A stretch of DNA of 64,000 nt, taken from the NCBI GenBank assembly GCA_040954595.2, contig CM082598.2, forward strand, positions 6,277,097-6,341,096, read 5' to 3'. The translations under genes were made by a program, and so were the position numbers. Origin of the DNA: Balanoglossus misakiensis. Lineage: Eukaryota > Animalia > Hemichordata. The notes below the pieces were generated by a model that searched no databases, was not told the origin of the DNA, and saw nothing but the letters and a program-made list of their open reading frames with translations. Below, one piece after another: positions 15,136 to 44,326 of this stretch. Each line of letters starts with the position of its first letter. Positions within the stretch are counted from its first letter, which is position 1.

Positions 15136-15139
15136 CACC

Positions 15140-15480: not shown

Positions 15481-16456
15481 TTAACTCTGTCTTTGTTAAA
15501 CTGACATTTCTCGCCGTTTAGCTTGACATTGTTCTGTCTGCAGGCTTTCATGATATTTTGTATGGCTATGTCATGCTGTTGTCTGGATTCGGCAGCAATG
15601 AGGATGTCATCCTTTATGCAGTATTCATTGCTGACCTTCTGGAAAATCCGATCCAGCTCAATCTGGAATACGTCTTGGGCTGAGATGAGTCCAAACGGTA
15701 GGCGTGTGAAGCAATATCTGCCGTAGATAGTGCTGAATGTGGTGAGGAGTTGCGATTCCTCATTAAGTGGGATATTCCAATATCCGCTTCTGAGATCAAG
15801 TGTTGAGAAGTACTTTGCGTTCTTCAGCTCTGGAAGAATGTCATCAAGAGTTTTCGCGTAGTAGTGTGGACGTTTGATGAACTTGTTAAGTTCGCGTGGG
15901 TCCAGGCATATGCGTAGGGATCCGTCAGCCTTTGTGACAAGTACAATGTTGTTGACCCATTCAGTCGGTTCCTGTACTTCCTTGATGACGCCGATTTCAA
16001 TCAGACGGTCAAGTTCTTGTCTGAGAGGGGTTTTCAGTGCGTCGGGTGTTCTCCTTGTTGCGTTAACTGTGGGCACTGCTCCATCAGACAGCTGGATTTT
16101 GTGTTCATTTTGGATTTTGCCAACACCTTCGAACACATCAGCGTTGTCATTGATGAAATGTTCCTTGCTGGTGTACGATGCGATTTCTTCCACATCGAAT
16201 TTCTCAAAGCAGCTGTGCCTATCACAGGGAAATTTCACAAGTCCTAGCTTGGCGCATAAGCTGAGGCCGATTAGGTTGTTCCCCTGTTCTGAGATGAAGA
16301 ACACGACGTTAAGTAGACGGGCGTTTTGATGCTCAATGACCGGGACAGTTAATTTCCCATGGTTTGGGAAACGTTTGCCTCCATATCCGCTAAGACGCAT
16401 ATCAGTTGTGTCTGGATTGTGGTTTGGGCCAAACAGTGTTCGGTATGTGGTATAGT
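15481..16456 (-). pseudogene. pol: Ty3/gypsy reverse transcriptase fragment
   Basis: PTEWVNNIVLVTKADGSLRICLDPRELN, FSTLDLRSGYW, RLPFGL, CIKDDIL, LNGEKCQF. Truncated at both ends. Confidence 0.92.
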
Positions 16457-18371: not shown

Positions 18372-21300
18372 CTAAACAAACAAAAACAATACATAAAAAA
18401 TTACACTTCTGCTAATAAATAACTTCACATTACTCTACTTGATTTTTTTAAATATCCAGATTGTTTACTTGTACTGTAAATAACCTGTTGAAGTTATAAC
18501 ATTTTGATGGTTTAAAATGTAATCATTCCACTTTTTTCAAGAGATGGCTTAACAAAGGCAATAACAAAATGTGTTTCCTGTAACCCAAACTTCAGAAATC
18601 GGGTATCCACAGTTTAGGTCAGAAAATAAAGTTTTCTTGTTCTTTTTTAACCCAAATTGCGTTCCGTAGCCCTGTGGCCATAGGGCTACTCATCAAATTT
18701 ATAAGGGAGACGGCAATGTATAAAATCTCTGAAGCCTACATTCACGTAAGTCTTGTCACGCCCACATTAGTCTGGATGAAATATTTGGGTCATGCATGTT
18801 CTGTCACTATTATTGACCAAGCACTGCATGCTCAGGTGCAGAGAGGAACATTATTGAAATGGTGAGCATATTATCAGGAATGCTTGGAGTCATGCAGTTG
18901 CAATGTGTTTTCTTGTTTTATTCTGATATAAAACTCATCTATATTTTATTTTTAAACAGTGTCGGGACACCCACTACGTGGAAAGCTTTAACAACTGTGC
19001 ATTACAATACCAAGACAAAAGAGTGGTATATGGAGACAGCAATTATGAAATAGGGGCAGATTCGGCATGCCTAGACTGGGTAAGTACTAGTATTGGATGT
19101 TTCCCCACCGCCACAGATATCAATAGACAAAAACAAAGAAACGTGTATTAATTTACCAAATAATGAAGTCACATCAATGGAATGGTGTTGCCACATGTGA
19201 ATTAAAAGTACTAACCAAGTGAAGCATCGAAACTTTTGAAGGTTTATACACGTACAGGCATATAAAAAACGTTTATCTATCTAGAGAATGAAAACGTGGA
19301 CCGACAATACACATCAGAAACGTTAGTGAGGACAAATAGATGCCGAAGAAGAGAGATCAGAAAAAAAGTGCTGAAAAGGAAAAAGTTCGCGTGGAGGAAC
19401 GATCTGTGGGAACGGGAAATGATCAAAATGTTTGATATTAACATGTAACAAAACGGAAAATGTAAATATTTGTACCATAATGCAATTTTATTGATGGAAA
19501 TTAAACATAGCGTGAATATAACACGAAGACTTGTCGTATTTTCTAATGAATATCACTAGAGAACAGTGTATTTAGTATATTTACCAACCACTGATTACAG
19601 CAACAGTTCGTCATGCTGCAAAACTTCGGGCGAGTTGTGTTTTACATAACTCGTTCGAAATTACTAGTGCCTGCAGGTGTGGCGTTTTTCACTTAGGACT
19701 GTTGGAATTTGCCTAAATATCGCTAAATCTGGCTGTGTTTTTTAACCCAGTGGCCCATGGGGTTCATTCATGTATTTAAACTCTCTTGATCCCTCTCGTA
19801 CACCCCCTACGCCTAGTCTCATCCAGCGAGCGGAAAAACCGTGTCGTATTCTACGATCGCAATGGTTTGACGTCAGATCTAATGTTGATATTGAAGTCTT
19901 CTGGGTAAAATCAGCAATATTAGCGCCAAATTTCAGAATTCATGTGCGACGCGCTGCAATAAAAAAAGTTCAGAGTGCGTATGTCCATGTTCTCTTTTAC
20001 TGTGCACTTTACGGTCGGTAGGATTTTAGTCACTTTCATTAGGATTTCGCCGACGTTAAGGTGTGCCCGAGCCAAACCGAGCCAACCCCACGATTTCGGG
20101 GTTCATTTATATGTAAAGCTCTCCGAAAGGTGTGAATCGGGTAAATATGTAGTGGTTCATAACAGTTTTCAATATGCATAAGCAGTCTCTCCACAGATCA
20201 GCAGTATTCGAACATGGGGGTCATGATTCTACAGAATCAACGACTATTCCTAACCTATCTTTGGATTTTCTTGACTCTTTTGGAGTATTCACCCGAATAC
20301 ATTTATTCAGAGAGTAAAATAAACGAATGCGTCTTGCAATCACGTGATAAAAATGCGCCCTCTGTCGTATCGTCATTTGTGCAGACGAGCCTACCTTTCA
20401 GTCTCCGTGGCAATGACCGAGGATGATTGTGTTATAGCAGAGATTACTAAATCTTTTCATAGGATGGTGTTCTAGCGAGATATAAGTAGTAAACACCACG
20501 CTGTGATGGTATGGAACCGTACACATTACAGAACAACCCGCTACCTTGCTAAGCTTACAGACCCGAAAAAAATCGCGCAATCACTGCTAACATGTGCTTC
20601 AGTAGAATACACCTACTGTCCCAGTGTGACATTTGCAGACAGTTGTATCTTTCCGATGAATTATTCAGCATGTATGCCATAAAACGTTCATAAACAATTA
20701 TATAGAAAATTATATTATTTTATATATTCGTTTCTGAAGCAATTTCAACGTGGTAAAGGTGATAATCTCGCAGTCACTGGTCCCCGATGTCACCGCGTAT
20801 TCTAGGAGTAGGTGTCGATGTAAACGGACAGACTGTCACGGGAAGTCTGATATAACGTCAGACGGGAATCTATGAATTTCTGTCTATGTGTGGCTTGATA
20901 TCATTGTATCACTATTACTACATGTAGATTATATTGTAAGAGTTTGGTGTTTAGTTAGCCGAAAGAGAGTACCATTGATTGTCTAAAATATTATGGTGTT
21001 TTTCCGTATGTGCCTGGGTGACAAATTTTCATGCACTGATGAATTCGCGTGTCACATTGCATGGGTTCGTATTGAAATTTGTCATCCATAATTTGAACAG
21101 GTACGGAGACAATATCCACGATTGGCCCCTTTTAGTTCACGTCAAGTTTTTGTACGATTGCTAGTCGATTGAATCTCAGTACAATCCCAACTATGCGATA
21201 ACTTATCAGGGCATGTAGTAGTGCTTATCAACTAAAATGACGGACAAGTACCCGGATGTGAACGCCATGACGTCATTTGCCACCCACATATCCAAGGCGA

Positions 21301-24300
21301 CAAAACGGGTTTGTCATCCTGCCTAACATGGTGTTCGTGTCCCGATTAACCAAATTTTATATTGTTCGCCACTTTTGTTGATCGTCATGGGCTGACCCCT
21401 AAGAACATTATTCTGGACAGCTGCATGTTGGCCTCAAACTATAACAGCACACCCAGAGTTGTGCTCACTCATCGACTCTAGAGTAACATTAAGTCTTCGT
21501 TGGGTGCATATGAACATTTGAAAGGCAAACGATAACAACGTGAATGAAAGCTCCGCAGAAATTAACATAATTTTCTAATCTGTCATCTTCGAAATAGTCA
21601 TAATCGGTAGTTGTGTTTATTATTAGTGAACAGGCTACCGGAAACATTGTCGTCGTTCGACAACAGCACGCCACCCAGACGGACAATACTGCTAAACAGC
21701 TGTCAGTAATGACGAGACACAATATACTATCACCTCCTCGAAAGAGATATAATCAGTAACTCCCCGTATCATTTTGAACAGCATGTATGCTGTTTACTGT
21801 GGTAAAGCGACTAAACGATATTGAAGTGAATAATAAAACGAAGGAAGGCCATGTAGTTATTTTCAAATTTTGGAAATGCCCTTTTTAATCTTTCGGACGA
21901 AATCACATAAAATATCCAAAGCACTAATAACGTTTGGCTGATGTAGAAACATTGGTATGTATGAGTCATCGTACAACGTCACATATACCATGTTATTATA
22001 CACCTACTGCTGTAACCTATGGAGTTCCGTAATACAATAATTCGCTGTATCACCGTACAATAATTATTCAAATGAGGACGCGGAGTCCAATAACACCAGG
22101 GTTATTGGACGCATTGTGACTTTGACCTCACAGGACTGGTGATCAATGTAAACAATGATGATATTAACCCTACTCTGACAAAAAATTATATAAAAAGTAC
22201 ACAGCCGTTATTTAACAAAATTATTGGTGACCCAAGATGCGAAATAAGTCAAAATCCACGCTGAAATTTCAGTCGAAGGAATCTGTGAACGAACAGGCGA
22301 GCGCGTTCATTTCAAGTTCCAGAACGAGCGCAAGCAGCGTAGAACGTCGCGCGCGAGACAGGCAGGTCGACACTAGCATCACCTGATGCGCGAGGTGAAG
22401 GCGCGTTCGATATGCAAATTACATCATGGCGGCGTCTGAAAACTAGAAAGTCCGATAGCGGCCAATTTATTCTTTGTCGTTAATGAAGAACGTTAATGAA
22501 GAATTGTCCTCGACGCTGCGCGTCTCGGACAATACTTGCGCTGCACGATGTACTCGGACATAAATCCCGGTATTTTGTGAATAACCTTATATAGTCCGAC
22601 ATGCACATGACACGAACAAGGCGATGTGCGATTGACGGAAAACTCCCTAATGATAAGTTGACGTTATTGACGTTTTATGCGAAAAAGACAGGTTATTCTG
22701 TGTGTCATGTCTTTTCTTTGACGGCACGCCTCGCATTGTGTGATGCGTGCTGTGCACCATTAAAGGTGTCATTCATTACAGTGTGTGAAAAGCATACCCA
22801 TCTCAGGTTTGTCCACCTTTTGTTGTTTTATGCTTTACCAGGGTACCAGTGACAAACTTAAGCAAGTAGAATATGCTACCACAAAACCCTTTTCGCACAT
22901 ATGAGTTTGGTATTGTGTTTCCGATCATCGGTAACACCTGTTAGATCGTGTGTAAAATCGAAGCAACTATTTTGGACAATGGCGTTTTGGGTCAGGGAGA
23001 AGTGTGATTTCAAAGCCGGTTATAATCAGAAAATGACCTCTTCTCAGTGTGTCTACTAAATTAATTAGGCGAAAAGACCCAGAAATGTGTGGCGGGGAGA
23101 AATTAAGCCTCTATTGGCTTGGCCTACAATACACCGCTCGGGTGTTGGCCATGTCTTAGTATCAAATATTGGGGAGCTGCAGGCAAATATCCGTGATCAC
23201 AGTCCCATGTGTTATAGGGACTGTGCCATGACTAGTCGATAATTTTCTAGCATGGCGTCTTATTGTTATAACTAGTAACCGTGTTCACACCTGCCCGTGT
23301 TCTTCAATAACCCATGGTCGCTCCACACAGACCGTGAATACTAGTAACCACAAGACTTTTGACAACAGTGCTTGCATATGTTCAGAAGGTCTGTACTTAA
23401 GTATCATACCCACGGGGGAACCTGACAAACGGAAATGGTTTTCATTGACTGATGTCGAGTCGTGTTGAGAACAACAAGTAAGTTACTGGGTGCACTCACT
23501 GGTAGAGAGCACCAGTTAATTGTGGTATAAGAATCAGTCGACTTCACAAACCTGTACGTCGTGAAGATGAAATATTGCAAGCGAAAGAAGATGGCAGAAG
23601 TAATTTTCAAGCTCATCATAGTTGTGTCAGAAGTTATGCTATGTTTGGACGGTCAACAGATTCAAGGTATGACAGAGCTTTAATGATATCTCTCAATAGG
23701 TAGTCATATCATCTTGTTCATGGTGGTAATAACTTATTTCCAGCATTTCATAATTACTCACACTTTCTTTCTTACTTTTTTTGACGCGAACACACAACCT
23801 CGCAGAAAAGCGTGAACTGGTCACGGTATCATCTCAACCAGCTGTTTATCGACTCGCGTATCTCATATATTCCACTCCGCTTAGAAATCAAGAAAATAAA
23901 TACACAATCAAGGAAACAGGAAAAATATTACTGCATGCTTGATTGGAAAAGAAACAAAATCGTATTATTGATTGCATAATTGCCGCATTGAACATAAAAG
24001 CGTGGTATTAAACATGTCACGTTTTGAACTGAGTCAACAGAATTTTTAGAAAATATCAGCGACTGCGTTTAAAAAAAGTCCGATTGCCGGTTCTTGAGTT
24101 CTCATTATCTAGCTAACATTGTGCTTGAAACTATGATGCAAGGAGATTATACCTGTTGCAAGGAAGTTGAGATGATCGGGGTTAAAATGCCGTGTGAACG
24201 CGTAGGCCCATAATTCCGCATGAAAAACTCTGTCCTCCGTCCCTGAGGGACGATGCTTTGTCCCATGTTCGTGTGATTCAATTCAATGCAATGTACTGAC

Positions 24301-24539
24301 GCATGTATAATCTTTTTTTTAATGGTGCACAGACGCCTCAGCACTGAACAAGGCTACCTACATGCATGTTTCGGCTCCACGGTTACATTTCAACAAGATG
24401 TACATTCACGCTGTACGATAATGAATGGAGGTGATTTGAAATTGATGACGGATATTCTGCCGACAACGATTTTTCCAAGTGTCGAAGATAACAACATTTT
24501 GAACGTCCTGATTTCAACCTCGCAGGGGCACTACCACGC

Positions 24540-26902
24540 ATCTTAACAAGCCAGCTGCGACATACTACTTACGCTTATCGAAGTGTTAACAACAAGATTC
24601 TCCAGAAATACGGCAAACGTGTGGACCGCATAATTCAATTGCGTAAAGATAAACTCGAAAGACACTTGACAGGACTCTTAAACCGAATAAACAGACATTT
24701 ATTACGCGAGGCTTTCAAAGTTCAAGGCACCAATAAGCAGCGAGATATAAAGGTCAGCACGGGAAGAATATCCGATGAGAAGATTCGAGATTTTGACGAA
24801 AAATTACAAGTCATTCACCGAAGGTTGACAGCAATATCATTCACCAGAATTCACGAGAAGGTTTAGTGAATTTTTGCAAAGACTTGTCAAACAAATACTC
24901 TTGTGCTCCTGATTCACTGATTGATCTGCTGTACTTCACTGTCTACAAACTTTAACAATGCATTATCAAAATGCAACAAGGGACCACTTTTCAGCATATT
25001 ATATGATTCTTTCTCGGTACGTGATTCGGTTACCTCAAGAAAATGTCTACTTGAAACCAGAGAGGCACCGTGGGACTGGCTCGTTACCAACTGCAACCAC
25101 GGGTTTTCACCGAAATATCGTGGTGATGCTGTGTTAGGGGATGCGCTCTACGGTTTGACACATACAGAAGAAGAACGTAAATTATTGTGCTTATCTTTCA
25201 CTACAACCACGCACTGTGATTCTTGTAATTACCGGAGGCAAAGAGATGTCAATCTACTACCAGTCGTTGTCGGTCATGCCGTCAATTCATCAAATAAAAC
25301 CGTCGGTCACCTAGTCACGGAAACACTTGGCGAACTGGCCATGCGATCTGAAAATAGACTCTGTCCTAGATGTAAAGGCTGTTCATTGACACCAAAAACA
25401 GATCACGTCCATGTTCCAGAGTTCCTTTTCGTGGAATTGCCCTTCGAAAATGACGTCAATGTCGCCAATATTTTGGTCGAAGAAAGCCTGTTACTATTTG
25501 AAGCTGAATTCGAGCTTGTTGGAGCAATCAGGGCAAAACCAAGACACTTCACGACAATAATAAAATACGAAGACAACTATTTTGAACTGGATGATTTGAA
25601 TGAATGCGGCAACAAACCAATCCACGGGAGTAATTTCAGTAACTTGATGCGTAAAATAACAGCCGGCACATCGCAAGAGACTGTATCTAATGTTTCAACT
25701 CAATATAGGACAGAACCTGGTAGCTTTCTACATGTCTTGCTTTTCAAGAGAAATTCAACACAACCATTGTCAAACAAATTTTAACAGCCGTCTGGACCGA
25801 GTATTCACGGTAAATTTGTATCACAGACGGACAATGTAGACTCAAACCCAGCAAAGTCGACATGGCCATTGACAGGGAACGCAAGTGAACGTTCACTCCA
25901 AGCAAAGACGGCAAGTTCTTCGACACAAACCAGGACAGATCCGTCATTAGCTAATGCTGTCAGCTCGGTACCAGTGAATTCAACGTGTTCATCAACCAAG
26001 ACAGATTCACTGTTAGTGGAGACAACCGGTCTTACTCCGAATAATTTAATGCGTTCATCGCAAGTGACAATGACAAATTTATCGAGATACCGACAAATAT
26101 GCCACCGGATTTCGACATATGGAACAAGCTCCGATCCAATCCAAAGGCGTGTGGCAGTAAAGTTTGAAGATTATGTTAAACGGAATGTCGCTGCAACAAA
26201 AATCCAAACACTCGTCCGTTGCTTTTTAGCAAGAAAACGCAGAAATCATCGCCAAATAATAGACAACGTTCTCTCCACCAAGGACAAGTATGATCAATTA
26301 TTTTCCAGATTTCATTTTTTCCTTTACGGAAGGATACCGTCAAGCGTTAAAATAAGGAAAGAAGAGTTTGCAGGACTGATTAAAGAACATGGTGGCCAGG
26401 TCGTAGAGAAATTACCAGCAAAGGGTGTAAACATGAAAGTTGTGATCTTGACTACGCAGTCTGACATAGATAAAGATCCACCAGGAGATGTCATTTGTTC
26501 AGCATACAGGAGAGACTGTAACCTTTTCCGTCACGAATTTGTAGTAGAATCAGTTCAAAATGCAAAGATTCAGGACTGTGATGCCTACAAACTGAACACC
26601 GATAAACTGGCTGCATCCCCACTTACAAGTGTTGTCAGTGTAAAGGAACTAACTCCAGAACAACTCCACTTTGGGTATGTATTGATGTCACTGTGTCGTG
26701 AAATTGTAATTGTACTGACGTAAACTTAACAGATAAATACAAAATTTGTCCTGCTTAAAATTTACTTATCTTCGTTTATCTTATAGAAAACAGATCTCCG
26801 GGATAACGCGAATAAGAAAAACACTACTTTTGAAGACAAAGAGAAAATTGTACGACATTGAAGAGACTGTGACTGATTCGGACAGCTGTAGAGATTATGA
26901 AG
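24540..26902 (+). pseudogene. Gene A: USP/peptidase-C19-like protease + Ser/Thr linker + IQ motif + BRCT domain (frameshifted)
   Basis: Off-frame Cys box GLVNFCKDLSNKYSCAPDS (24860-24916). ORF 24921-25784 has CxxC pairs CDSC and CPRC, His box HFTTIIK and ELDDL. A single TAA at 25782 is followed by in-frame continuation into AATKIQTLVRCFLARKR (IQ) and FSRFHFFLYG..LIKEHGGQVV..EFVVESV (BRCT). Probable GT-AG intron at ~26675-26786. Confidence 0.65.
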
Positions 26903-27770
26903 GTGAGAAATTGTTACGTAATTGTTTAAAGGAAATCCTATTGTTCAGCGGGAATCTTAACTCATAAAGTGTGTGGCACCTCCATGCTTAACTCCACCGA
27001 ATTCTACCATATATCCGTTCTAAAATAACCCCTGAATGAAATGCAATTTAACTTTCGACATGTTTGTATGTGCCTACGAGTATGGAGCGACAAGAAAAGA
27101 AGTTTAATTACGTAGGCGAATTATGTGAAAATGAGCCCGGGAGCCCCTGGGAGGTGCGTGCGTGACGTCATTGGCGATGCTGATGAGAATGATGGTGAGG
27201 AGGAGGATGAAGAAATGTGGGATGAAGTACTTGCATGGGCAAGAGAAGTCGAAATGACAGGATGTCCCAATAATATACGAGAACACGGAGCAAGTTCTGG
27301 AGTAGATCAGCCAAACAGTTGTATCACTGACTTCACTCTTGAAGAGGCCCTGCCAATACTAGAAAACCATGATGAATACTTTGCTTCTCTGCCACTTCAT
27401 TTCCAAGTCAAGTCCTTTCTCTAATCTCTGAAAGATACTTCAGTGTTTTCACTCAAGCCACATACCACAGCATAGCAGGTTAACACAATCTTGGAGGAAC
27501 TCGCATCCCAAGACAAAATGAGAGAGACAACCCACTATATAGAAAAACAGTGGACAACTATCTACCGCATCCTCAAAGCCAACTGTAAAGCTACTCCAGG
27601 AACTGTAGGAAGTCATGACCGTAAATCTTTCACAGCACATTTTGAACACCTACACAATTACCTGACTGATAATGCTGTTATGCAGTCATTTCAGAATTTA
27701 TGTGGCATTCCACTGTCATCCATCCATACAGAGTGTATGTCCACCATACTTCTTGGCATGAACAAGCTAA

Positions 27771-29804
27771 TTAGGGGACCAAGCGCCCTCAGGCGCTTGG
27801 TCCCCTTCTGTTATTGCTGGAGTTTTTCTTCTTTCTTCTTGAGTCGTTTTTTTGCTCCCGTTTTGCTCAAAATTCCCTGCTTCTACGCCTATGAAACTTG
27901 GCACGGTGGTTGAGTCCCATGAGTACTAGTGCACCTGCCCTTTGAATTTGTAATTAGTCACGTGACTTGGTGGCTATAATCGAGCGAAATTTTCAAATTG
28001 ACCTAATTTGCACGTTAATGGGGGCATGTACATTCTTTTCGCGATTTTCGTAGACCATGTGGCCAAAATCCCCTGTGCCAAATTTTTAGGTCCTAGGCCA
28101 CGTCGATTTTGAGAAGAAGATTTTTGTAATATTTTTCGCATTTTTTGGTGGGCTGAGGACAAACACTGGGGCATCGGACTTTGACCGTCATTACGTAATG
28201 TTGTGGAGATCTCATTAGCAGGAGGGTTGCAGTAGTCCTTTAAAAATCGGCTGAAATACGTAAACAGACCAGTGATTATTTTCCACGGAATGAATTTTGG
28301 GACAACACATTATCAGAGTTCAGGCTGTGTTAGGGCGATTAATTGAATTACGCTGAGTTTCTTAGCTGTTGCCGTTTAAATGTATCTCTGCAGCCCCGGC
28401 TACACCGGTTAACATTCAATGTAATGCGGCAGCGGACTTTGACCCTCAGTCGCTAATGTTGTGGGAGGTTTCATTAGCATTTAGGTGGTCACATGTAGTG
28501 GATAGTAGTTCGGGAAATTGGCCGAAATACATAAGCAGACCAGTGATTTCCTTGCACGAAGGGAGTATAGTACCATCAGAGATCAGGCTTCGTTGCCGTT
28601 CAAATGTTCCTACTTCAGTCGTGACGTTGCAACTGAACGTTCAGTATGGGGTTCGGCCCGCAGGTGGCCGTGGGGGTTATCAGGTCGCCCGTAATGGCAC
28701 GCAGCTTCATGCAGCTCTATGGGACCATGCGTAACTCTATTATGTGCATGCGTAATTGTGGGGTCAATGAAAGGGATGCTAGCATGGTATTTGTTGCACA
28801 TGGATCAATATGAAGTCCGATTTTCCTGTCAAGTTGTGGGCGACCTTATGTGATATTTCACCTACTTTTGCTTAGTGAATAACAGCAGATGCATGCAGCT
28901 TTGGCGTGGTGGGGGGGGGATATACGGATGGGACCATAATGATATACCAAAGGCGGGGTCACCCGTTGCACCTGCCGAAGTCATTGATTTTGTACATTTA
29001 ATTGGACACTAACCAACAGGGCGATATGTGTGGTTTTTGTTCCACACGGACGAATGTAAGTGTCAGTTGGTTTTTGCCCAAATGTATAAGGTGATTTGGA
29101 TGACCTCTGTCGTACAGTGCCATATCTCAGCACGTTGTGCAGGTGCAGCTTTGGTATTTGGAGGGATGAAACTATCATGAAATGCCAAATACATGGGGAT
29201 ACCTGTGACACCTGCTTGATTCATGTATTCCGTGCATACCTAATGGTAGGCGAAGTGAAAGGGCTGCAAATGTCGGATTTGTTGCACATGACATAAACAG
29301 GAATGAAAATTTTTTGTCAAATATTTGGTTGACCTCAGGTGTCCATTGACCTGCTTTCCATATGTTAGCATGCAAATCATATATAGCCAGGTGTTTGGAG
29401 GGGTAGGTAGGACCTCTGCGTCATGAAATGCTAAATTCCTGGGGCCACCTGTAACTTACTTGCGTAACTCATTTTATGGTCATATCTAATTTGACCAACC
29501 CAAAGGGCGAGGATTTTCCGTTGTCTTGAATATGAACCAAATAAGAATCAAAATTTTTGGTCCAATTTTTGGGTACCCTCAGCTGACCTTTGAAGTACTT
29601 ACTGAAGTACTTACAACGTAGAAGTTCACCTTTGGTTGTTGTTTTTGTACTTGTACGACATGCATTTCAGGTGGTTGCCTACTTCCCCATATCTCAACAT
29701 CGAGAGCAAATACAGCCTACGCATTTGAATGGTACAACCCTGAATGGAGTCTAATGGTTATTAACTCTATGCTTGGGCCCCTTCAATGCTGCTTGCAGCT
29801 TTAA
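27771..29804 (+). mobile_element. Complete Helentron-associated non-autonomous element (HINE-like), ~2.03 kb
   Basis: 5' perfect hairpin AGGGGACCAAGCGCC-CTCA-GGCGCTTGGTCCCCT (27773-27806), followed by a TTC-rich tract. 3' subTIR GCTTGGGCCCCT (29771-29782), hairpin GCTGC-TT-GCAGC and TTTAA. Inserted at a TT site; excision restores the host ORF. Confidence 0.85.
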
Positions 29805-30538
29805 TTATCCAAGAAGTTACAGATATTGCCAGAGCACAGTGGTCCCCAGGAGTGAATGATAATAGAGAGATACAGGATTCAGGGAAAGCCAAGGTCCGCT
29901 ATGTTGGGGGATGGGCTGTAACAAAGTGCCTCTATAAATACCGCAGGTATCTCTTGTCATACAGTTCCTCTCTTGTGCCCACAGTCCGCCAGCAGTTACA
30001 GAGACATTACCAGAAAAAAGACTTAGTTGAAAGTCTTGTCTAGTCTTCACAGTATGTACACGAACATTCCCAGCACAGAGAGACATTATCAGTAACTGAC
30101 TTCAAACAGTATGCACGTGGTGGGCTTCTCCACATCAGTGACTCTGCGTACAGTTTATTTTTAACATTGGAGAAAGAGAGAGCGTCACAGTAATTTCCAG
30201 AACCACAAATCAGACCTGATTGACTGGGCTAAAGAGTGTCTACTGAAGAATAGCTGTGTACGTGATCTATTCTCAGGTTTATTTGATCCAGTTGAAGAGG
30301 CGAAGGACTGTGCTGGATATATGTAGTCAGTTATGGGAGAAGTGTATTCTGATATTGTTCATCTCTATGTGAAGATGGGAGCAGGCCAGTTTCTGAGAGA
30401 CCAGAAGTGCTACATGCAGCTAAAGAAGACCGAAGCACACAGAAAGAAGGTAATGCAACGAGAGCATAAAGCAACGGAAAAGAATGCCAAGGTGGCCCTG
30501 GAAGTGATCAAGACAGACATCAGTGACGGGAAACATAC

Positions 30539-30725
30539 TGTTGAGAACAGTATGAATTAGTAATTATATATGTACGTTTACCCGCCCACTCTCTGGTATG
30601 TAACCACGCCCATTTGAAGGGCACGTGTAGAGCATGGTGCCGGTAATGAAGTAGAAGTTGCTTAGTGTTGTTACTTGACACACGTCTCCGTTCCATTCTC
30701 TAAGTACAATCGAACCCCGCGTGCA
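30539..30725 (+). repeat. BEL/Pao 5' LTR (two small deletions relative to the 3' LTR)
   Basis: Near-identical to 36424-36618. Lacks an ~8-bp GTGTTCCA segment and the terminal TTCAAGCACACA. Confidence 0.92.
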
Positions 30726-30729
30726 TTGA

Positions 30730-30747
30730 TGGTGCCGAGACCAGGAT
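30730..30747 (+). promoter_or_regulatory. Primer-binding site, probably tRNA-His
   Basis: TGGTGCCGAGACCAGGAT closely matches the complement of the animal tRNA-His 3' end as I recall it (TGGTGCCGTGACCAGGAT). Confidence 0.75.
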
Positions 30748-30764
30748 ACTGTACTTGAGACGAG

Positions 30765-32235
30765 ATGGATAATCTGGAACGAATGAAAAGGAGCAGAACC
30801 GCACACCGCGGGCAGATGACCAAGATTCTCAATCAATTAGACCAAGCTTTCGATGCCGCAAAATCAGAAGTCGACGAGACAATATTGGACGTCATCCACG
30901 CTAAGTTGGAAGTACCCTCCGCAAAACTACAGCACTTCCAAGATTTAGATAACAGCATCCTCGACAAGACAGATGATGAAGAGTTAGAAGAAGCCACAAC
31001 AAATACCGATGAATACCACAACGACGTCAAACAAAGGTTGGTCATTTTTCAGAGACATTTAAGTAGACTGAGCATGAAAGTCGGAAGAGGCGAGGAAACA
31101 AAGCTCAGTCCAACAGCGGCTTCGTTCATGCCAAATGTAACACAGACAACCTACAAGAACGTACAACTTCCAAAACTATCGTTAGCAAAGTTTTCCGGGA
31201 ATGTGCTGGAGTGGCAAAGTTTTTTCGATGGCTTCCTGGCTGCAGTACATAGTGACAAGAGCTTGAACGATGTTCAGAAATTACATTACTTGAGAGGACA
31301 ACTCTCTGGCAAAGCAGCTAGGGCCATCGAGCGACTTCAACTCACCGAAGCAAACTATTCGAATGCTATCGAAATCTTACGCGAACGATATGGTCGAGAC
31401 CACATTATAAAGGCTGCCTACATGAAGGCCCTTTGGGAACTGCCCACACCTAATGAAGACCTTGCGAGTATACGGGAATTTTACGACTCGATCGAAAGCT
31501 ACATTCGAGGTCTGAGATCGCTCGGAAAGGACGAATCGTCATACGGGGACCTGCTCGTGCCAATCATTATGGAGAAACTACCGGGTAGAATGCGCGAATT
31601 CATAGCCAGAGATCATGGTTCATCCCGCGAGTGGACACTACAGAAATTACGCGAGGCTATACAACGAGAAATAGATGCTATGGAAGCCGGACAATCGTTA
31701 TCCGCATTATCTATATCGCCGCTAAGCCACCATGAAACACAACCGCGCGCAACAGCCGCATTCTACACCAAAACAAAGTCTACACCGCGAAAATGCCCAT
31801 ATTGCAAAGAAGAATCGCACAACCCTCTTAACTGTAACAAGGTAACCACCGCAGATCAGCGATTAGAAATCGTAAAACGCGAACGCCTTTGCTTCAATTG
31901 CTTGGGTAACCATCGAGTTTCTCAGTGTAAGTCGAAAAACCGCTGCAGAAACTGTAAGCGAAAGCATCACACGTCGTTGTGTTCACCAACGCAATCCGCA
32001 GAAAAAAGGGACAGACAAGCTGAAACAGCAGAAGCTCCCACCACAGTTCACGCGAAATCGGTCTCGACAGTAGAAACCAACTCTCCTACCGACATGAGTC
32101 TCGCAACCGCAACGGACAGAGGAGCCGTGTTGTTGAAAACCGCCGTAGCGCAAGTCTCTAGCCCCTCAACAATCGCGACAGCTACGATACTGATCGACGA
32201 AGGAGCCACTAAGTCCTTCATCACACAAGATAGAA
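30765..32235 (+). CDS. gag: BEL/Pao Gag plus aspartic protease start (the ORF runs on out of frame to 32522)
   Basis: LPKLSLAKFSGNVLEWQSFFDGF (DUF1759-type). Three Cys-His knuckles: CPYC..H....C, CFNC..H....C, CRNC...HHTSLC. Protease motif ILIDEGATKSFIT. Confidence 0.9.
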
Positions 32236-32307
32236 TCAGACCGCTCACAAGTAATCGATCTTGCCGCATTTGGAGACACGAAAACCTCTGCGAGGTCTCT
32301 CAATCAA

Positions 32308-35300
32308 GTGACATTCTCATTGCACACTACTTCTGGATCGAAGCTAGATATTACCGCGCTAGTCGTGCCCAAAATATCGGCGCCCTTGAGGAATCTCATC
32401 AGCCCCTCTATATTAGAGCTACCGCATTTAAGGGGTTTGAACTTCGCGCACCCGCACTCAGATTCGGACACTTTCGAAATATCTATACTTCTCAGAGCCG
32501 ATTATTATTGGCAGTTGATTGAAGATGAGATCATCCGCGGAAAGGGGCCAACAGCTGTGAAATCGAAATTGGGATATCTTCTATCGGGACCGACTCACAC
32601 CCGCGATCTGAAAACAAACACCGTTCTGCACATCGCCACAGAGCTAAGACAGGAAGAATCGGATCTGAAAGCCTTTTGGGACTTAGAGACAATCGGCGTC
32701 AAGGGAGATCCCCAAATAAACGATAAAATGACAGGATATGAAACTTACTGCAAAGACAATATCGATTTCCAAGATGGCCATTACGTCGCCCGCCTTCCAT
32801 GGAAACCAGACCACCCACCCCTGCCAACAAACTACAAGATAACTAACAATCGCACGCGCGCCATGGTGAGAAGATTGGACATGGAGTCACGACTTGCGTA
32901 TGATAATATCATACAGGAACAAACACGAAAGGGGTTTATAGAATTAGTAACGGACGATCACACAACAGAAGGCCACTATCTTCCACATCATCCAGTTAAG
33001 AAGGATTCCGGAACAACTCCGATAAGAATCGTGTATGATTGCAGTTGCCAGGCAGGAAACGGAGCAAGTCTAAATGACTGTTTGTCGACAGGGGCTCCGC
33101 TACTGAACGATCTGACTTCGATATTGATTCGCTTTCGTATGCATCGGTTCGCACTGTCGGCAGACATAGAGAAAGCCTTTCTACAGATCGGGTTACACAA
33201 CGAAGACCGCGACTATACGAAGTTTTTATGGCCATCGGACTACCGCGATCCGGAAAGCAAGTTTGACGTTTACCGTTTCAAGACAGTTTTGTTTGGTGCA
33301 GTGTCGTCGCCCTTCATTTTAAACGCGGTCATCCAAACACACCTGGACTCAAATATCTCAAACGTGTGTCGCGACATCAAAGAAAACATCTACGTCGATA
33401 ACGTCTTGAGTGGAGTAGACACTGAAGATGATGCGTGTGATTACTACAGTGAAGCCAAGTCGGTAATGGATAAGGGCGGTTTCAATCTCCGTTCGTGGGC
33501 CTCGAACTGTTCGGAATTACGCGACCTAGCGAAGCAGCATCAGGATTTAGACAACGACACAACGGTGAATGCCTTCGGCCTACTTTGGAACACTGAGTCT
33601 GATGCAATTTCGTACAAACGAAAGGAACTTGACAACGGAAATCTGGTAACTAAGAGAGAAATCGTCCGCAACACCGCAAAGATGTATGACCCGCTTGGAC
33701 TTCTCGCGCCTATACTAGTGAAGGCAAAATGTCTCATTCAAGAAGTTTGGAAACAAAATGTACAATGGGACGAACCACTACCGCAAATTCTGAGTGACAC
33801 TTGGACGAACATACGCAGAGACTTACTTACCGCAACAGATGAGTTCTCGATCAACAGGAAATACTTCGAATGCCAGGCTAATTGTCAAGAACCTTATGAA
33901 TTACATGTGTTTGCAGATGCCAGTGTCAAGGCGTACGGTGCCGTCGCTTATCTTTGCCATGGCAACAACACTGCTCTTGTCATGTCCAAGACTAGAGTTG
34001 CCCCAACAAAGCCCATCACGCTTCCACGCCTGGAATTGCTGGCCGCGTTGATTGCAGCCCGCCTGTTGAAATTCATCCGAAATAGCCTCATGCAGCAGGG
34101 AAACATCAAAATCACACAGTGCGTCTTATGGTCCGACAGCCAAATAGTATTACACTGGATTAACAGCCGTCGAACTTTACCAACTTTCGTTGGGAACCGC
34201 GTACGAGAAATCAAATCAACACCAGTGGATGTGTTTAATTATTGCCCTACTGACAGCAATCCGGCGGACATTATCACACGTGGAATCGCCGCTTGTAAAC
34301 TACGTGAGAATGCACTATGGTGGACCGGCCCATATTGGCTGAAAAACGGTGAATGGCCCGCGTCAACTGTCAACTTCAATGCAGCCGCTATTGATGAACG
34401 CGACCAAGCTCAGATCACCGGGTCATTTGAGGCCATCGCTACTCCGCGTCGCCATGGTGACACGTGTGAAGACATAGCGACTGTTATACACGCGACTCGC
34501 TATAGCTCATACGCCAAACTGTTACGTATTACCGCTCACGTGAGAAGATTCGTTTCAAACTGCAGAAAAGCCCGCGATAAAAGAAATGTCGGACCTATCT
34601 CAGGTACAGGAATACGCGACGCTGAGAGAATGTGGATTTTGAGCGTTCAGCGAAGGCATTACAGTAGTGAAATCGATTTACTACAGTCAGAGAAAGGCAA
34701 ATTGGGAACTTTGGCCAAGCAGCTTGGCCTATTCATGGATGATCAAGAACTGATCCGCGTCGGAGGTAGACTTCATAACTCACCTCTGGACTATGATACA
34801 AAGTTTCCCGCACTGCTACCAGCGAAGGAACATTTCACACAGCTACTTATAGCAGATGCACACAAGAAAGTCGCGCATGGAGGGCTAACCTCGACGGTTA
34901 CGTATATCCGCAAACGGTTCTGGATCACCAAAATAAGGCAGGTAGTGAAGACCTATCTACGAAACTGTGTCACGTGTAGGAGAATCCATAGCAAACCCTT
35001 CAAAGCTCCAGTAACCGCACCACTTCAGACACTCAGACTGTTAGAAGCCCCGCCGTTTACAGTGACTGGCGTGGACTTCACTGGGGCGTTCTACGTGAAG
35101 GAAGAAAGGGGTGGATGCAAAGCCTACGCCTGTCTGTTCACGTGCGCAGTTACGCGTGCCGTTCATCTGGAGCTAGTACATGACTTGTCGACGCAAAGTT
35201 TCCTCCGCGCCTTCCGTCGGTTTTCAGCGAGACGATCGACACCACGCTACATGATTTCCGACAACGCGACAACATATGAATGTGCAGCAGATGAACTACA

Positions 35301-36123
35301 ACGACTTTTTGAGTCTCCTGTTGTCAAGACGTATTTGGCTGACAACAGAATTGACTGGAAATTCATACCAAAGCGTGCCCCATGGTTTGGGGGATTTTAC
35401 GAGCGATTAATAGGCATCACGAAAACCGCACTGAAGAAAGTACTTGGGCGGTCCTTTGTTACGTTCGACGAACTACAAACTGTTTTGACGGAAGTCGAAG
35501 CAATCATCAATGATCGTCCTCTCACTTATACGTCCACAAATCACGGAGACCCGCAGCCGCTGACGCCGTCTCACTTGTTACATGGCAGACAACTTACAGG
35601 GTTGCCCTATGACACGCCTGACATCGACGAAATGAAGGATCCGACATATGGGATCACCAAGTCAGCGCTACAAACTCGTGCGGATTACCTGGCCAAGTTG
35701 CATTTCTGGCAGAGATGGTCGAGGGAATATTTGACATCACTTCGTGAAAGAGACATGGTGAAAAGGGAAGGACGAACAGAGAACGTCATCAATGTCGGCG
35801 ATGTCGTTTTAGTTGAGGACAGCCGTACACCACGTATGAAATGGAACTTAGCAGTAGTGGAAGGATTGAATTACGGCAATGACAATCTTGTGCGATCTGC
35901 CAAAATAAAAACTCGGTATGGCCGTACTAATCGCCCTATTAGGAAACTGTATCCGATTATGGAACTTGCCGTCAAAACTGACACTGACAGAGCTGACTCT
36001 GAAATTGACAATGACAAGGCTGGTACAAATGGACAAGTAAACCATGCCCAGCCCGATAGAATTAGTCGTGCCGCAGCAGTGAAGGCACGTGACCGTATCA
36101 AAAAATGGTCGTATGCTCTGTGA
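32308..36123 (+). CDS. pol: BEL/Pao Pol (protease C-terminal part, RT, RNase H, integrase)
   Basis: YLPHHPV, ADIEKAFLQI, YVDN, ELHVFADAS, LPRLELLAA, WSDSQ, H..H..C..C, GVDFTG, SDNAT, GGFYER, FWQRWSREYL. Frameshifted from gag near 32230. Confidence 0.95.
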   Translation: MTFSLHTTSGSKLDITALVVPKISAPLRNLISPSILELPHLRGLNFAHPHSDSDTFEISILLRADYYWQLIEDEIIRGKGPTAVKSKLGYLLSGPTHTRDLKTNTVLHIATELRQEESDLKAFWDLETIGVKGDPQINDKMTGYETYCKDNIDFQDGHYVARLPWKPDHPPLPTNYKITNNRTRAMVRRLDMESRLAYDNIIQEQTRKGFIELVTDDHTTEGHYLPHHPVKKDSGTTPIRIVYDCSCQAGNGASLNDCLSTGAPLLNDLTSILIRFRMHRFALSADIEKAFLQIGLHNEDRDYTKFLWPSDYRDPESKFDVYRFKTVLFGAVSSPFILNAVIQTHLDSNISNVCRDIKENIYVDNVLSGVDTEDDACDYYSEAKSVMDKGGFNLRSWASNCSELRDLAKQHQDLDNDTTVNAFGLLWNTESDAISYKRKELDNGNLVTKREIVRNTAKMYDPLGLLAPILVKAKCLIQEVWKQNVQWDEPLPQILSDTWTNIRRDLLTATDEFSINRKYFECQANCQEPYELHVFADASVKAYGAVAYLCHGNNTALVMSKTRVAPTKPITLPRLELLAALIAARLLKFIRNSLMQQGNIKITQCVLWSDSQIVLHWINSRRTLPTFVGNRVREIKSTPVDVFNYCPTDSNPADIITRGIAACKLRENALWWTGPYWLKNGEWPASTVNFNAAAIDERDQAQITGSFEAIATPRRHGDTCEDIATVIHATRYSSYAKLLRITAHVRRFVSNCRKARDKRNVGPISGTGIRDAERMWILSVQRRHYSSEIDLLQSEKGKLGTLAKQLGLFMDDQELIRVGGRLHNSPLDYDTKFPALLPAKEHFTQLLIADAHKKVAHGGLTSTVTYIRKRFWITKIRQVVKTYLRNCVTCRRIHSKPFKAPVTAPLQTLRLLEAPPFTVTGVDFTGAFYVKEERGGCKAYACLFTCAVTRAVHLELVHDLSTQSFLRAFRRFSARRSTPRYMISDNATTYECAADELQRLFESPVVKTYLADNRIDWKFIPKRAPWFGGFYERLIGITKTALKKVLGRSFVTFDELQTVLTEVEAIINDRPLTYTSTNHGDPQPLTPSHLLHGRQLTGLPYDTPDIDEMKDPTYGITKSALQTRADYLAKLHFWQRWSREYLTSLRERDMVKREGRTENVINVGDVVLVEDSRTPRMKWNLAVVEGLNYGNDNLVRSAKIKTRYGRTNRPIRKLYPIMELAVKTDTDRADSEIDNDKAGTNGQVNHAQPDRISRAAAVKARDRIKKWSYAL

Positions 36124-36423
36124 AACTGATTTGAACTGAGAAGTAATGTTTCACAGCAATGAACATCGTTCAGTTTGTATTAGTTAATGTAAACTGCAGT
36201 TCCTTTTCGGGAGCAAGTTACTAGTATATTGTTTGAAAGCTGTTTGTTTCATATTGATTCTGTGACCGTTAACGTAAACATGTTAGATTTTCATCTGTCG
36301 TTAAACTTCGATAGTTAGATTCAATTCGAGTAACAAGGTCGACATCTGTTTAGAATTAGGCTTTATAGCAACCAACTGATTGATCTGAGTTTCTGTCGCC
36401 AACCATTTCGGCGGGCGGAGTGA

Positions 36424-36631
36424 TGTTGAGAACAGTATGAATTAGTAATTAGTGTTCCATATATGTACGTTTACCCGCCCACTCTCTGGTATGTAACCAC
36501 GCCCATTTGAAGGGCACGTGTAGAGCATGGTGCCGGTAATAAAGTAGAAGTTGCTTAGTGTTGTTACTTGACACACGTCTCCGTTCCATTCTCTAAGTAC
36601 AATCGAACCCCGCGTGCATTTCAAGCACACA
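36424..36631 (+). repeat. BEL/Pao 3' LTR (208 bp)
   Basis: TGTTGAGAAC...AAGCACACA. Contains AATAAA and is followed by the TSD CATAC. Confidence 0.93.
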
Positions 36632-37241
36632 CATACCTCACACTCATTGATCAGCGCCAGAGTGATAGAAAACCCACAGTATTCGACTGTACACCAACGA
36701 TGAATTAAAGACTTTGTTTGGATTGTATAACCTAAGATACATTCAAAGCTACAGTACGAGTAAACTAAATGATATTCTGGTAAAAAAATAAGGGATTGTG
36801 ACAGAATTCCTAGACATGAAAGACTGAATTGAACTTTCATGCACAAATGGCCTTCATGAAATCAGACAAGTGTACAAGTTTAATTGTAAATTGATGACTG
36901 TGTATTTACATGCTCTATCTACATAACATTTTCTTGCATTGAAATCATTTGAAACTATATTTTTGTATGAAAACATTTGAAAAGACAAATTGGGTATACA
37001 AATAATGAATTCTTATATAGAAAACATACTACTCATGTCATATTGTGCTATTATTAAATATATGTCCAAGATTTCATTTACAAGTCAGTCATCTCTGCTC
37101 AATGTTCATTTACATTATCTATATAAGGGACTTGGTTTGTATTTTACGTATCAGATCTGTACAAATCTCAGGCGGTGCTTTCAAAGTTTGTTAAGAAAAC
37201 AAACCAAAATGCTTCAGATTTTTATGAACTTTTCAGTGACT

Positions 37242-38648
37242 TTACTCATCAACATCACTGTGTTTCCTCTTACCATTAAGAGCAATTGGCTTAAAGAGGG
37301 GCATGAAGTCCAAATTACCAGTGTTGCTTTTCTTTGTCATTGTGGTTTGTCCTAAACATATGGCATTAATTCCTGAACCATACTGTGCATACTGGGGATT
37401 TGCGTTTTGTCCATTTTTGCCTCGCTGTTGACAGAACACATTTTCAACCAGATTACTTTTTGTCCGGGCAGCTACAACTCCACTACCCAGATTCCTTAGG
37501 AAGCTGATTTCACAAATTTCCTTGAATCCAAGAACCATAGAATGTATATCAAACCTTGTCTGATCTGACAGTAACTTCTTATTTTTCTGAGATGCAGACT
37601 CCTGTAATGAATTCGCTCTCCTTTCCCACTGCTTAAAAAACTCCAAAATCTTATCGTTTTCTGTCAAACGTGGGTCTTGAATACAGTAATAAAGCCTCAT
37701 ATCTGTGAAATTTGCAATCATTTTGCTAGTGTTGTCCAATAGCTCAACTGTGGCACTGATGTCTTTACACTCAATTTCTGATGCACCCTGTTGTACACGA
37801 AATTTCTTGAACTCCTGTAGTAAAATACAAGAAAGTCCATTGCGTTACAGCAATAAAACAGTATTTCCGATACATAAACATCTCAAATTGCAAAAATACA
37901 ATGATGTCACAAATGTCACATGTAATTGTAGGCATTTAGTATACGCATAACATATAGCATACTGGCTAAAATATTTTTATTCCTGACTTATAGAATCATG
38001 AAAAGTGACCAAGTTATTGTATTGGAAAAATTGAAAAATAATTTTACCTTCATAAGATACAACATGTCCTTGTTCAAAACTTGTTCTGCCAAGTGTTTGC
38101 GCATACGTGATGCTGGATTCAAATCAAAATGGCCTGGTTTCAACACATGGTGAAGAGGGAGGGTGTGGGTTTCTTGATCAAATCTGTATGCATCTTTCCA
38201 GTGCCGCCACAAAATCTTGCCTTCTCCATTCCAGTCCGGGTTGCCTTTGTAGCTTCGGAACTCTTTTCAATGCCATTGCGAATTTTCTTGAAGTTGTGCT
38301 GAAACAAAAATTTTATACTGCAATTATACAACTTTCAAACTTTGGTATATGAGAATCATTGAACAAATTGTAAGTTTTGACAGACAGATCATTATTATGA
38401 TAAAATAAATATAATTTTGTGTTTTGGTAATTATAATGGTCTGTGTAGTATGCCTTTGTGTAGTGTGCTAGTGTGGATCATATGTATGACAATTGAAGCG
38501 TCTTGCCATTATGCTACTTACCCAATGATCCATACAGAACATCATAGGCTCACAGGTGTAGATATTCAATGTTGTGAAATTTTCTTCAGCTGGTTCCTCA
38601 TCTTTAAAATGCATTTGAACAAATGAGCAATTGGCTTGACCCCCACCA
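37242..38648 (-). pseudogene. Gene C: spliced P-element/THAP9-like transposase, 5'-truncated by the satellite
   Basis: Exons ~38648-38522 (GGGQANCSF...FCMDHW), 38298-38048 (HNFKKIRN..ILWRHW..HFDLNPASRMRKHLAEQVL; one frameshift) and 37814-37242 (LLSDQT..SNLVENVFCQQRGKNGQNANP). GT-AG introns. Motifs match P-family DxxHxxKxxRN, the GTP-binding insertion and ENxFxxxR..NP. Confidence 0.8.
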
Positions 38649-41600
38649 TTTTTTGATAAAAATCATGGGTTATAGCTCATGAAAATCACCCAAAAATGAA
38701 AATTTTTCGACTTTGCGAAATTTCAATATTTATCCATTTTTTTGATAAAATCATGGGTTATAGCTCACGAAAATCATCCAAAAATTTTTCGACTTTGCGA
38801 AATTTCAATATTTATCCATTTTTTTGATAAAAATCATGGGTTATAGCTCATGAAAATCACTCCAAAATGACAATTTTTCGACTTTGCGAAATTTCAATAT
38901 TTATCCATTTTTTGATAACAATCATGGGTTATAGCTCATGAAAATCACCCAAAAATGACAATTTTTCGACTTTGCGAAATTTCAATATTTATCCATTTTT
39001 TGATAAAAATCATGGGTTATAGCTCATGAAAATCATCCAAAAATGAAAATTTTTCGACTTTGCGAATTTTAAATATTTATCCATTTTTTGATAAAAAATC
39101 ATGGGTTATAGCTCATCAAAATCACCCAAAAATGACAATTTTTCGACTTTGCGAAATTTCAATATTTATCCATTTTTTTGATAAAAATCATGGGTTATAG
39201 CTCATGAAAATCACCCAACTATGACAATTTTTTGACTTTGCGAAATTTCAATATTTATCCATTTTTTTGATAAAAATCATGGGTTATAGCTCATGAAAAT
39301 CACCCTAAAATGACAATTTTTCGACTTTGCGAAATTTCAATATTTATCTATTTTTTGATAAAAATCATGGGTTATAGCTCATGAAAATCACCCAAAAATG
39401 ACATTTTTTCGACTTTGCGAATTTTAAATATTTATCCATTTTTTGATAAAAATCATGGGTTATAGCTCATGAAAATCACCCAAAAATGACAATTTTTCGA
39501 CTTTGCGAAATTTCAATATTTATCCATTTTTTTGATAAAAATCATGGGTTAGAGCTCATGAAAATCATTCAAAAATTACAAATTTTAGACTTTGCGAATT
39601 TTAAATATTTATACATTTTTTGATGAAAATCATGGGTTATAGCTCATGAAAATCACCCAAAAATGACAAGTTTTCCACTTTTCGAATTTTCAAAATTTCT
39701 TCATTTTTTGAAAAAATCATGGGTTATAGCTCATGAACATCATCCAAAAATGACAATTTTTCGACTTTGCGAAATTTCAATATTTATCCATTTTTTGATA
39801 AAAAATCATGGGTTATAGCTCATCAAAATCACACAAAAATGACAATTTTTCGACTTTGCGAAATTTCAATGTTTATCCATTTTTTTGATAAAAATCATGG
39901 GTTATAGCTCATGAAAATCATCCAAAAATGACAATTTTTCGACTTTGCGAATTTTAAATATTTATCCATTTTTTGATAAAAATCATGGGTTATATAATAG
40001 CTCATGAAATTCACCCCAAAATGACAATTTTTCGACTTTGCGAAATTTCAATATTTATCCATTTTTTGATAAAAATCATGGGTTATAGCTCATGAAAATC
40101 ATCCAAAAATGACAATTTTTTCGACTTTGCGAAATTTCAATATTTATCCATTTTTTGATAAAAATCATCGGTTATAGCTCATGAAAATCATCCAAAAATG
40201 ACAATTTTTCGACTTTGCGAAATTTCAATATTTATCCATTTTTTGATAAAATCATGGGTTATGGCTCACGAAAATCATCCAAAAATGACAATTTTTCGAC
40301 TTTGCGAATTTTCAATATTTATCCATTTTTTGATAAAAATCATGGGTTATAGCTCATGAAAATCATCCAAAAATGACACATTTTCGACTTTGCGAAATTT
40401 CAATGTTTATCCATTTTTTTTATAAAAATCATGGGTTATAGCTCATGAAAATCATCCAAAAATGACAATTTTTCGACTTTGCGAATTTTCAATATTTATC
40501 CATTTTTTGATAAAAATCATGAGTTATAGCTCATGAAAATCATCCAAAAATGACAATTTTTCGACTTTGCGAAATTTCAATATTTATCCATTTTTTGATA
40601 AAAATCATGGGTTATAGCTCACGAAAATCATCCAAAAATGACAATTTTTAGACTTTGCGAAATTTCAATGTTTATCCATTTTTTTGATAAAAATCATGGG
40701 TTATAGCTCATGAAGATCATCCAAAAATGACAATTTTTCGACTTTGCGAAATTTCAATGTTTATCCATTTTTTTGATAAAAATCATGGGTTATAGCTGAC
40801 GAAAATCATCCAAAAATGACAATTTTTCGACTTTGCGAAATTTCAATGTTTATCCATTTTTTGATAAAAATCATGGGTTATAGCTCATGAAAATCACCCA
40901 AAAATGACAATTTTTCGACTTTGCGAATTTTCAAAATTTCTTCATTTTTTGACAAAATCATCAGTTATAGCTCATGAAAACTATCCAAAAATGACAATTT
41001 TTCGACTTTGCGAAATTTCAATATTTATCCATTTTTTGATAAAAATCATGGGTTATAGCTCATGAAAATCACCCAAAAATGAAAATTTTTTGACTTTGCG
41101 AAATTTCAATATTTATCCATTTTTTGATAAAAATCATGGGTTATAGCTCATGAAAATCACCCAAAAATGAAAATTTTTCGACTTTTCGAAATTTCAATGT
41201 TTATCCATTTTTTGATAAAAATCATGGGTTATAGCTCATGAAAATCACCCAAAAATGACAATTTTTCGACTTTGCGAAATTTTAATATTTATCCATTTTT
41301 TGATAAAAATCATGGGTTATAGCTCATGAACATCACCCAAAAATGACAATTTTTCGACTTTGCGGAATTTCAATATTTATCCATTTTTTGATAAAAATCA
41401 TGGGTTATATATATATGAAAATTACACAAAAATGACAATTTTTCGATTTTGCGAATTTTCAAAATTTCTTCATTTTTTGAAAAAATCATCAGTTATAGCT
41501 CATGAAAATCATCCAAAAATGACAATTATTCGACTTTGCGAAATTTCAATATTTATCCATTTTTTGATAAAAATTATGGGTTATAGCTCACGAAAATCAC

Positions 41601-44324: not shown

Positions 44325-44326
44325 CA

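Follow-up and report, generated by a model that had tools for sequence, protein, structure and literature searches.

What element, if it is a single one, do three decayed genes lying close together in the genome of the hemichordate Balanoglossus misakiensis represent? They lie in a 64,000-nucleotide stretch of contig CM082598.2 (GCA_040954595.2, positions 6,277,097 to 6,341,096 of the forward strand; hereafter the window), animal DNA that is dense in mobile elements and satellites. An earlier note had read all three as one P-type transposon, in which a transposase gene (C) is accompanied by a partner gene (B) and a deubiquitinase-like cargo gene (A). We find that B and C are probably the decayed core of a two-gene, split P-type cut-and-paste transposon whose second gene normally also carries a PIF1 helicase. 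This reading follows from three points taken together: C-type transposases end short of a C-terminal domain (CTD), B belongs to a PIF1-fused family and is predicted to contain a CTD-like domain, and the two genes recur tail to tail in related loci. The copy in the window is dead, with stops, frameshifts, two insertions and a right end lost to a satellite; what gives it value is the lineage to which it points. The features are as follows.

24300..26967, + strand: gene A pseudogene (USP-like, IQ-like, BRCT); start position uncertain
27131..27770, + strand: gene B, piece 1; acidic linker and helical region, downstream of the helicase in relatives
27771..29804, no strand: HINE, a high-depth non-autonomous Helentron-like insertion that splits B; edges +/- ~3 bp
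29804..30538, + strand: gene B, piece 2; region of the predicted P-transposase CTD fold
30539..36631, + strand: BEL/Pao long terminal repeat (LTR) retrotransposon inserted in B
36637..36832, + strand: gene B, piece 3; small helical tail, predicted stop 36830-36832
37242..38644, - strand: gene C; last three exons of a P-type transposase
38645..43791, no strand: 88-bp satellite, which cuts off transposase C
19100..24299, no strand: non-coding block, CpG-undepleted and continuous with A; contains a 599-bp insertion

Gene C and its convergent partner

Gene C survives as three exons on the minus strand (38644-38522, 38298-38048 and 37814-37242), with GT-AG introns, one frameshift and the catalytic Glu still in place. 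They match residues 563-879 of the homologous protein P0005 at 64-90% identity (61-90% over P0005 and a second homologue, P0006), in keeping with the earlier call of a spliced P-type transposase. C thus reads as the last ~315 residues of such a protein, the remainder having been lost at the 88-bp satellite; that the element's right end was lost there had also been proposed, and a contig from X1 (X1 and X2 are two runs of one sample) enters the same junction. A 60-bp X2 contig with a depth of ~1,850 lies near this junction, within the first surviving exon (38527-38586), where X1 shows no rise.

The Pfam family PF21787 scores above its cut-off in P0005 and P0006, and PF21789 is matched, likewise above cut-off, by the last exons of all four related loci scanned. 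When the C-family profile was compared with PDB sequences, the Drosophila P transposase (6p5a_A) came first, weakly (E 0.06), through three collinear stretches corresponding to the helix-turn-helix, the D(2)H motif and the Glu531 region; RFX winged helices ranked next, as weak matches at the family's N-terminus. P0005 itself found no match among PDB sequences, and viral contigs held no C homologue. Between the second Asp and the Glu, where P transposases have a GTP-binding insertion, the spacing is ~250 residues in this family, with a very weak alignment to residues 337-404 of 6p5a_A and no Pfam GBD match, and no THAP domain was found in P0005, P0006 or the N-terminal frames of L001 and L024, two of the related loci described below. 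Judged by these motifs, the C family has the DDE RNase H core of P-type transposases.

In the fly transposase the catalytic Glu is residue 531 (PMC7776569) and the CTD spans residues 617-734. All ten C-type proteins that have the Glu motif (seven loci, the window, P0005 and P0006) stop 59-66 residues past it, at 66 residues and without a CTD in the window, and therefore end short of this domain. The B profile found nothing on the transposase strand of the loci or in P0005 and P0006.

The three pieces of B are collinear with residues 461-923 of another protein, P0007 (LOC144451879), at 45-69% identity. P0007 was the best of the 213 matches returned when B was searched against 1.84 billion representatives, and it spans all three pieces. 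Piece 1 (residues 461-613, 45% identity) has a possible ATG at 27131 and two in-frame stops; piece 2, with the motifs KVRYVGGW, RGGLLHISD and MGAGQFLR, has two stops and one frameshift; piece 3 corresponds to residues 889-923 at 69% identity. Ahead of these, the N-terminal part of P0007 is a PIF1 helicase, and the long B homologues likewise carry PIF1 Pfam matches. A loose helicase motif is present in 20 of the 20 homologues having at least 300 residues ahead of the B motif, and all six SF1B motifs (I-VI) in 7 of the 10 long ones; the other three are without Walker A, which is consistent with N-terminal truncation. By sequence comparison this helicase is far nearer to cellular PIF1 (E 6e-71 for P0007 against solved PIF1 helicases) than to Helraiser (E 5e-17). 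The homologues start directly with the helicase, no HUH Rep domain is among the Pfam matches shown for them, and several end in a PHD finger. They include a scallop protein, and the closest named relatives of both B and C come from Glandiceps talaboti and Ptychodera flava; no B homologue was found by word-based search, in viral contigs or in prokaryote genomes, and the Atlas gave no usable match for B. Window B is thus best described as the C-terminal half of a PIF1-helicase fusion family. The convergent partner that the earlier note had recognized in B stands, as something other than generic cargo: a predicted displaced CTD that is normally fused to PIF1.

The motifs of B are reminiscent of the P CTD. 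The structural model of the P0007 B domain (model confidence, pLDDT, 92.7) has as its top match residues 617-734 of 6p5a_B (Z 10.0, root-mean-square deviation 3.0, 118 of 118 residues aligned), the only one of 48,161 chains to reach Z>=8, with the runner-up at 7.5. The B domain is accordingly predicted to fold like the Drosophila P transposase CTD, and the match carries weight because the domain matched is exactly the one that the adjoining gene C is without.

The B-C pair in related loci

The stop codons of B and C are 409 bp apart, as expected from the earlier description of two genes tail to tail at ~400 bp. Of the 150 listed B matches, 26 that form one subgroup were aligned and used as the query of a metagenome scan, which returned 36 loci. 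A helicase lies upstream of B in 31 of them; four others begin within ~600 bp of B, and L036 gave a weak match. A C-type transposase on the opposite strand follows B in 8 of the 36, representing five sequence groups. Most contigs end too soon to contain one: among the nine loci with at least 1.5 kb past the last B match (a tally in which L036 has no B match), the transposase is present in six. In L020 (3197-3448), the transposase facing B is without its last exons, and this relative is probably an internally deleted derivative. Across seven elements (six loci and the window), the pairwise identities of B and of C co-vary (rho 0.90, 1 of 5,040 permutations), with shared ancestry contributing to the correlation. 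In Ptychodera flava the B and C homologues have non-adjacent accession numbers, but those homologues are different family members.

The near-complete L001 contains both genes, and only those two, between inverted repeats (82-274/9812-10004, 96% identical, and 1-64/10149-10212, 98%), which comparison with L003 extends to ~700 bp. The left boundary, C(A/G)TGACTCTT, is common to L003, L004 and L036, whose flanks mostly differ; none of the loci contains both ends together with flanks. The end of the fly P element also starts with CATG. Inside the right inverted repeat of L001 sits a small element with perfect 43-bp inverted repeats of its own (10015-10153). The single P-type element of the earlier note therefore holds up for B and C, a convergent pair that recurs and in one case lies between long inverted repeats; for A it has so far not done so.

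These loci also bear on another possible origin of A, B and C, as host genes, each present once and now decayed, or as a domesticated pair; the low depth in both runs would suit it. All three genes are broken, the relatives lie within long inverted repeats with differing flanks, and one species has at least two diverged versions of C and at least two of B on separate contigs. We consider a host origin largely refuted and very improbable.

Several points weigh against uniting B and C in one split transposon. Three of the nine loci with sufficient downstream sequence (L006, L009 and L027) show no transposase there. The metagenome loci are only ~32-44% identical to window B, and no close relative with flanks was found; they therefore define a lineage rather than the family of the window copy. 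For that copy we found no terminus, target-site duplication or second copy, and no helicase was detectable in the window. P0005 and P0006 are gene models, and a downstream exon could have been missed in them, though the contigs show stop codons. As for the fold of B, the two domains matched are helical bundles that share 12% identity, and the Z of the match falls below ~13, a range in which, by the tool's own caution, a score can mirror a common helical arrangement; Foldseek found no match to the model in the PDB or BFVD, and the domain has no sequence-level PDB or Pfam match, B profiles included. The CTD fold of B is for these reasons only a prediction. The same observations would suit a reading in which B is simply a helicase gene that was captured, the likeness of its tail to the P CTD is accidental, and the transposase works without a CTD. 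We think this unlikely: the single clear match among all the chains compared is a whole domain, the very one absent from the adjoining transposase.

Gene A, the left flank and the inserted elements

Both insertions that the earlier note had removed from the locus are real. The BEL element has near-identical LTRs (starting at 30539 and 36424), a 5-bp duplication (CATAC) and Pao/BEL domains, and a 1,547-bp X1 contig links 30538 to 36631, running from B straight into C without it. The other insertion we take to be a HINE, following the earlier label. Bins wholly or mostly inside it have summed contig depths of 26,000-47,000 in X1, as against 64-105 across gene A, and its depth is several-hundred-fold above its flanks, contig depth not being copy number. 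Two X2 contigs stop at its edges with overhang lengths that, by arithmetic on lengths rather than letters, are compatible with an empty site. The three genes are equally real: A and C through domain matches and GT-AG-bordered exons respectively, B through its collinearity with P0007.

In gene A, USP-like boxes are visible by eye around a Cys codon at 24902, a His at 25545 and an Asp at 25590. This part is followed by a Ser/Thr-rich linker, an IQ-like helix (~26190-26240), a BRCT domain (26295-26588), a predicted intron (26675-26786) and a stop (26965-26967). BRCT_2 is matched in Pfam at E 3.5e-10 and IQ falls under the cut-off; the protease part has neither a Pfam nor a PDB sequence match, and its USP-like character is suggested by a score of 0.94 to a PF00443 cluster among Atlas features. 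The reading frame is interrupted by stops and frameshifts, and the structure model reached a pLDDT of only 34. A splice fusion of A to B was considered; by eye, there is no convincing acceptor.

Whether A belongs to the element is close to an even question, since no homologue of it was found in the related loci and its CpG content is unlike that of B and C. We set two accounts beside each other, each at slightly under an even chance. In one, A has replaced the helicase, giving an element that encodes three proteins (deubiquitinase-BRCT, a CTD subunit lacking the helicase, and the transposase) and whose left arm starts from ~19.1 kb. A does hold the helicase's place and orientation, ending 163 bp ahead of the possible start of B; no helicase remnant of any kind is left in the window; A is as broken as B and C; and depth is equally low over all three. 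UCH domains are moreover reported as cargo of HLE2 Helitrons (PMC11417382). Yet none of the 36 loci has an A homologue, nor was one found by word-based search, among the other fetched proteins or in viral contigs; the near-complete L001 has two genes only; and no terminus was found. CpG also speaks against it: A has 113 CpG observed against 111 expected (observed/expected 1.02), whereas C and the main parts of B have ratios of 0.35-0.37 (11/31, 13/35 and 17/47). The similar decay that the earlier note saw in the three genes is thus borne out by their stops but not by their CpG, and its claim that A is cargo, which we would put a little below even, is so far unsupported.

In the other account, A and the block from 19.1 to 27.1 kb do not belong to the P-type element but lie against it, as a mobile unit or captured fragment of other origin that has removed its helicase and left end. 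In favour of this, the stretch without CpG depletion extends from ~19.1 to 27.2 kb and has a step on either side, the region is built of elements nested in one another, and P0007, the closest relative of B, keeps its helicase. Against this, no terminal repeats were found to bound the 19.1-27.1 kb block; insertion alone should leave the 5' part of the helicase upstream, where there is none; and the CpG drop is located just within B rather than in the gap between A and B. The contrast in CpG is what one would see if A had a history of its own; related elements, however, also have CpG-rich arms and a CpG-poor middle, a pattern that could also explain the step and hence accommodate the three-gene account. 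Sequence between A and B that had looked like a leftover of the helicase tail scored no better than shuffles; the loss of the helicase in this copy may be decay or a real variant.

Two further expectations of the earlier note have not so far been borne out. One, a left arm running through the non-coding 18.7-24 kb, met with no terminus: the relatives' terminal motif has matches in the window at chance level only, the six reading frames of 18.7-25 kb gave no Pfam match, and the region contains instead a 599-bp insertion and two exon-like remnants. The insertion (21993-22591, CpG-rich) has ~50-100x the flanking depth and is likely polymorphic, since both X1 and X2 contigs join across it. The exon-like pieces (18701-18745 and 18960-19079, + strand), with GT-AG borders and encoding an IYKISEAYIH-like sequence and CRDTHYVESFNN, have no Pfam match; the CpG-rich block has its left limit at these pieces, which resemble the Glu region of another DDE transposase, perhaps a Kolobok-like one. 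The other expectation was of several copies with shared termini. The A-B-C block looks low-copy, with no sign of a multi-copy family at >=80% identity: summed X1 depth over A and the arm, outside the 599-bp insertion, is ~60-140, similar to the 54-91 over junctions each of which is peculiar to one repeat copy.

Elsewhere in the window, a Gypsy element with a chromodomain and long open frames (43792-51128) sits within the 88-bp satellite, another satellite (unit ~192 bp) occupies 7057-13798, and a decayed pogo/Tigger-like transposase (HTH_psq, Tc5, DDE_1; 14690-18400, - strand) adjoins a Gypsy-like reverse transcriptase fragment.

A possible mechanism and known systems

If B and C are the two halves of one split transposon, the CTD on the facing gene B would supply the piece absent from the transposase, and the two proteins would likely assemble in trans as one transpososome. 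The P CTD is all-helical, is carried on a disordered linker and touches both transposon and target DNA (PMC7776569), and a helicase fused to it would thereby probably be brought to the transposon ends. What PIF1 might do there is the least certain step. Tethered in this way, it could drive copy-back repair of the gap at the donor site or strip the complex after strand transfer, the outcome being a 10-kb element fully restored following excision; we put this at somewhat less than even. Long-tract gap repair is the use we favour, the alternatives being disassembly of the strand-transfer complex and unwinding of the ends. Fly PIF1 aids long repair synthesis over a 14-kb P-excision gap, according to 10.1101/554550; the same paper counts against the proposal in that the effect was detectable only without POL32. 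In its most extended form, the picture would be of a widespread marine-invertebrate P-type lineage that split its transposase and grafted the CTD, with its DNA contacts, onto a captured cellular PIF1; the helicase, now an integral subunit of the transpososome, would steer repair of the excision gap towards copy-back, and the family of the present copy would later have swapped it for a deubiquitinase-BRCT gene. We offer this whole only tentatively.

A P-type system with its CTD in trans would, if real, account for a family of 213 unannotated PIF1-fusion or B-domain proteins and be a cut-and-paste element that brings its own repair helicase. Disassembly of the P transpososome and repair of the target site have not yet been investigated, according to PMC7776569, and a P system with its CTD in trans and a helicase attached would make both testable, subunit by subunit. 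Among titles and the starts of abstracts, none pointed to a P-type element that carries PIF1 or whose CTD is split off (Repbase, which may hold an entry, and most subscription journals lay outside this search), nor did the passages of PMC6431247 and PMC12730594 matched by our terms describe a split or PIF1-bearing P element.

The element formed by B and C is P-like in its working, yet it is not a canonical P or THAP9 element. Like Drosophila P (6P5A/6PE2) and vertebrate THAP9, it has an RNase H core with D..D..E and D(2)H, what may be a long insertion ahead of the Glu, a CTD that is predicted, in B, to have the same all-helical fold and, in its relatives, terminal inverted repeats. Unlike them, it has the CTD on a second, convergent gene that carries a PIF1 helicase, and its transposase has an N-terminus that resembles an RFX winged helix (weak matches), no THAP domain having been found. 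The inverted repeats are ~700 bp rather than the 31 bp of Drosophila P, and the element ~10-11 kb rather than 2.9 kb.

Helicases accompany other transposons. AcademH, a cut-and-paste DDE transposon of a different transposase superfamily, has a helicase as its second gene, a RecQ-like SF2 enzyme; here, in contrast, the helicase is an SF1B PIF1 and shares its protein chain with what is predicted to be part of the transposase. Helitrons and Helentrons share with the present element a PIF1-family helicase and, if A belongs, deubiquitinase-type cargo, OTU/UCH-type cargo being reported for Helitrons (PMC11417382). They differ from the present element, in which we saw no Rep domain, the helicase is much nearer to cellular PIF1 than to Helraiser, the transposase is of the DDE type and the inverted repeats are long.

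A parallel in layout is ProtoRAG, in which the convergent genes RAG1L and RAG2L lie between inverted repeats and the partner is a kelch-PHD protein. In both elements, inverted repeats enclose two convergent genes whose products likely make one transposase. They part company in the partner, which here is a helicase joined to a CTD predicted to have split off from the transposase; even so, some B homologues have a PHD finger at their end. If our reading is right, the B-C pair would be an independent instance of a transposase encoded by two convergent genes, the arrangement that gave rise to RAG.

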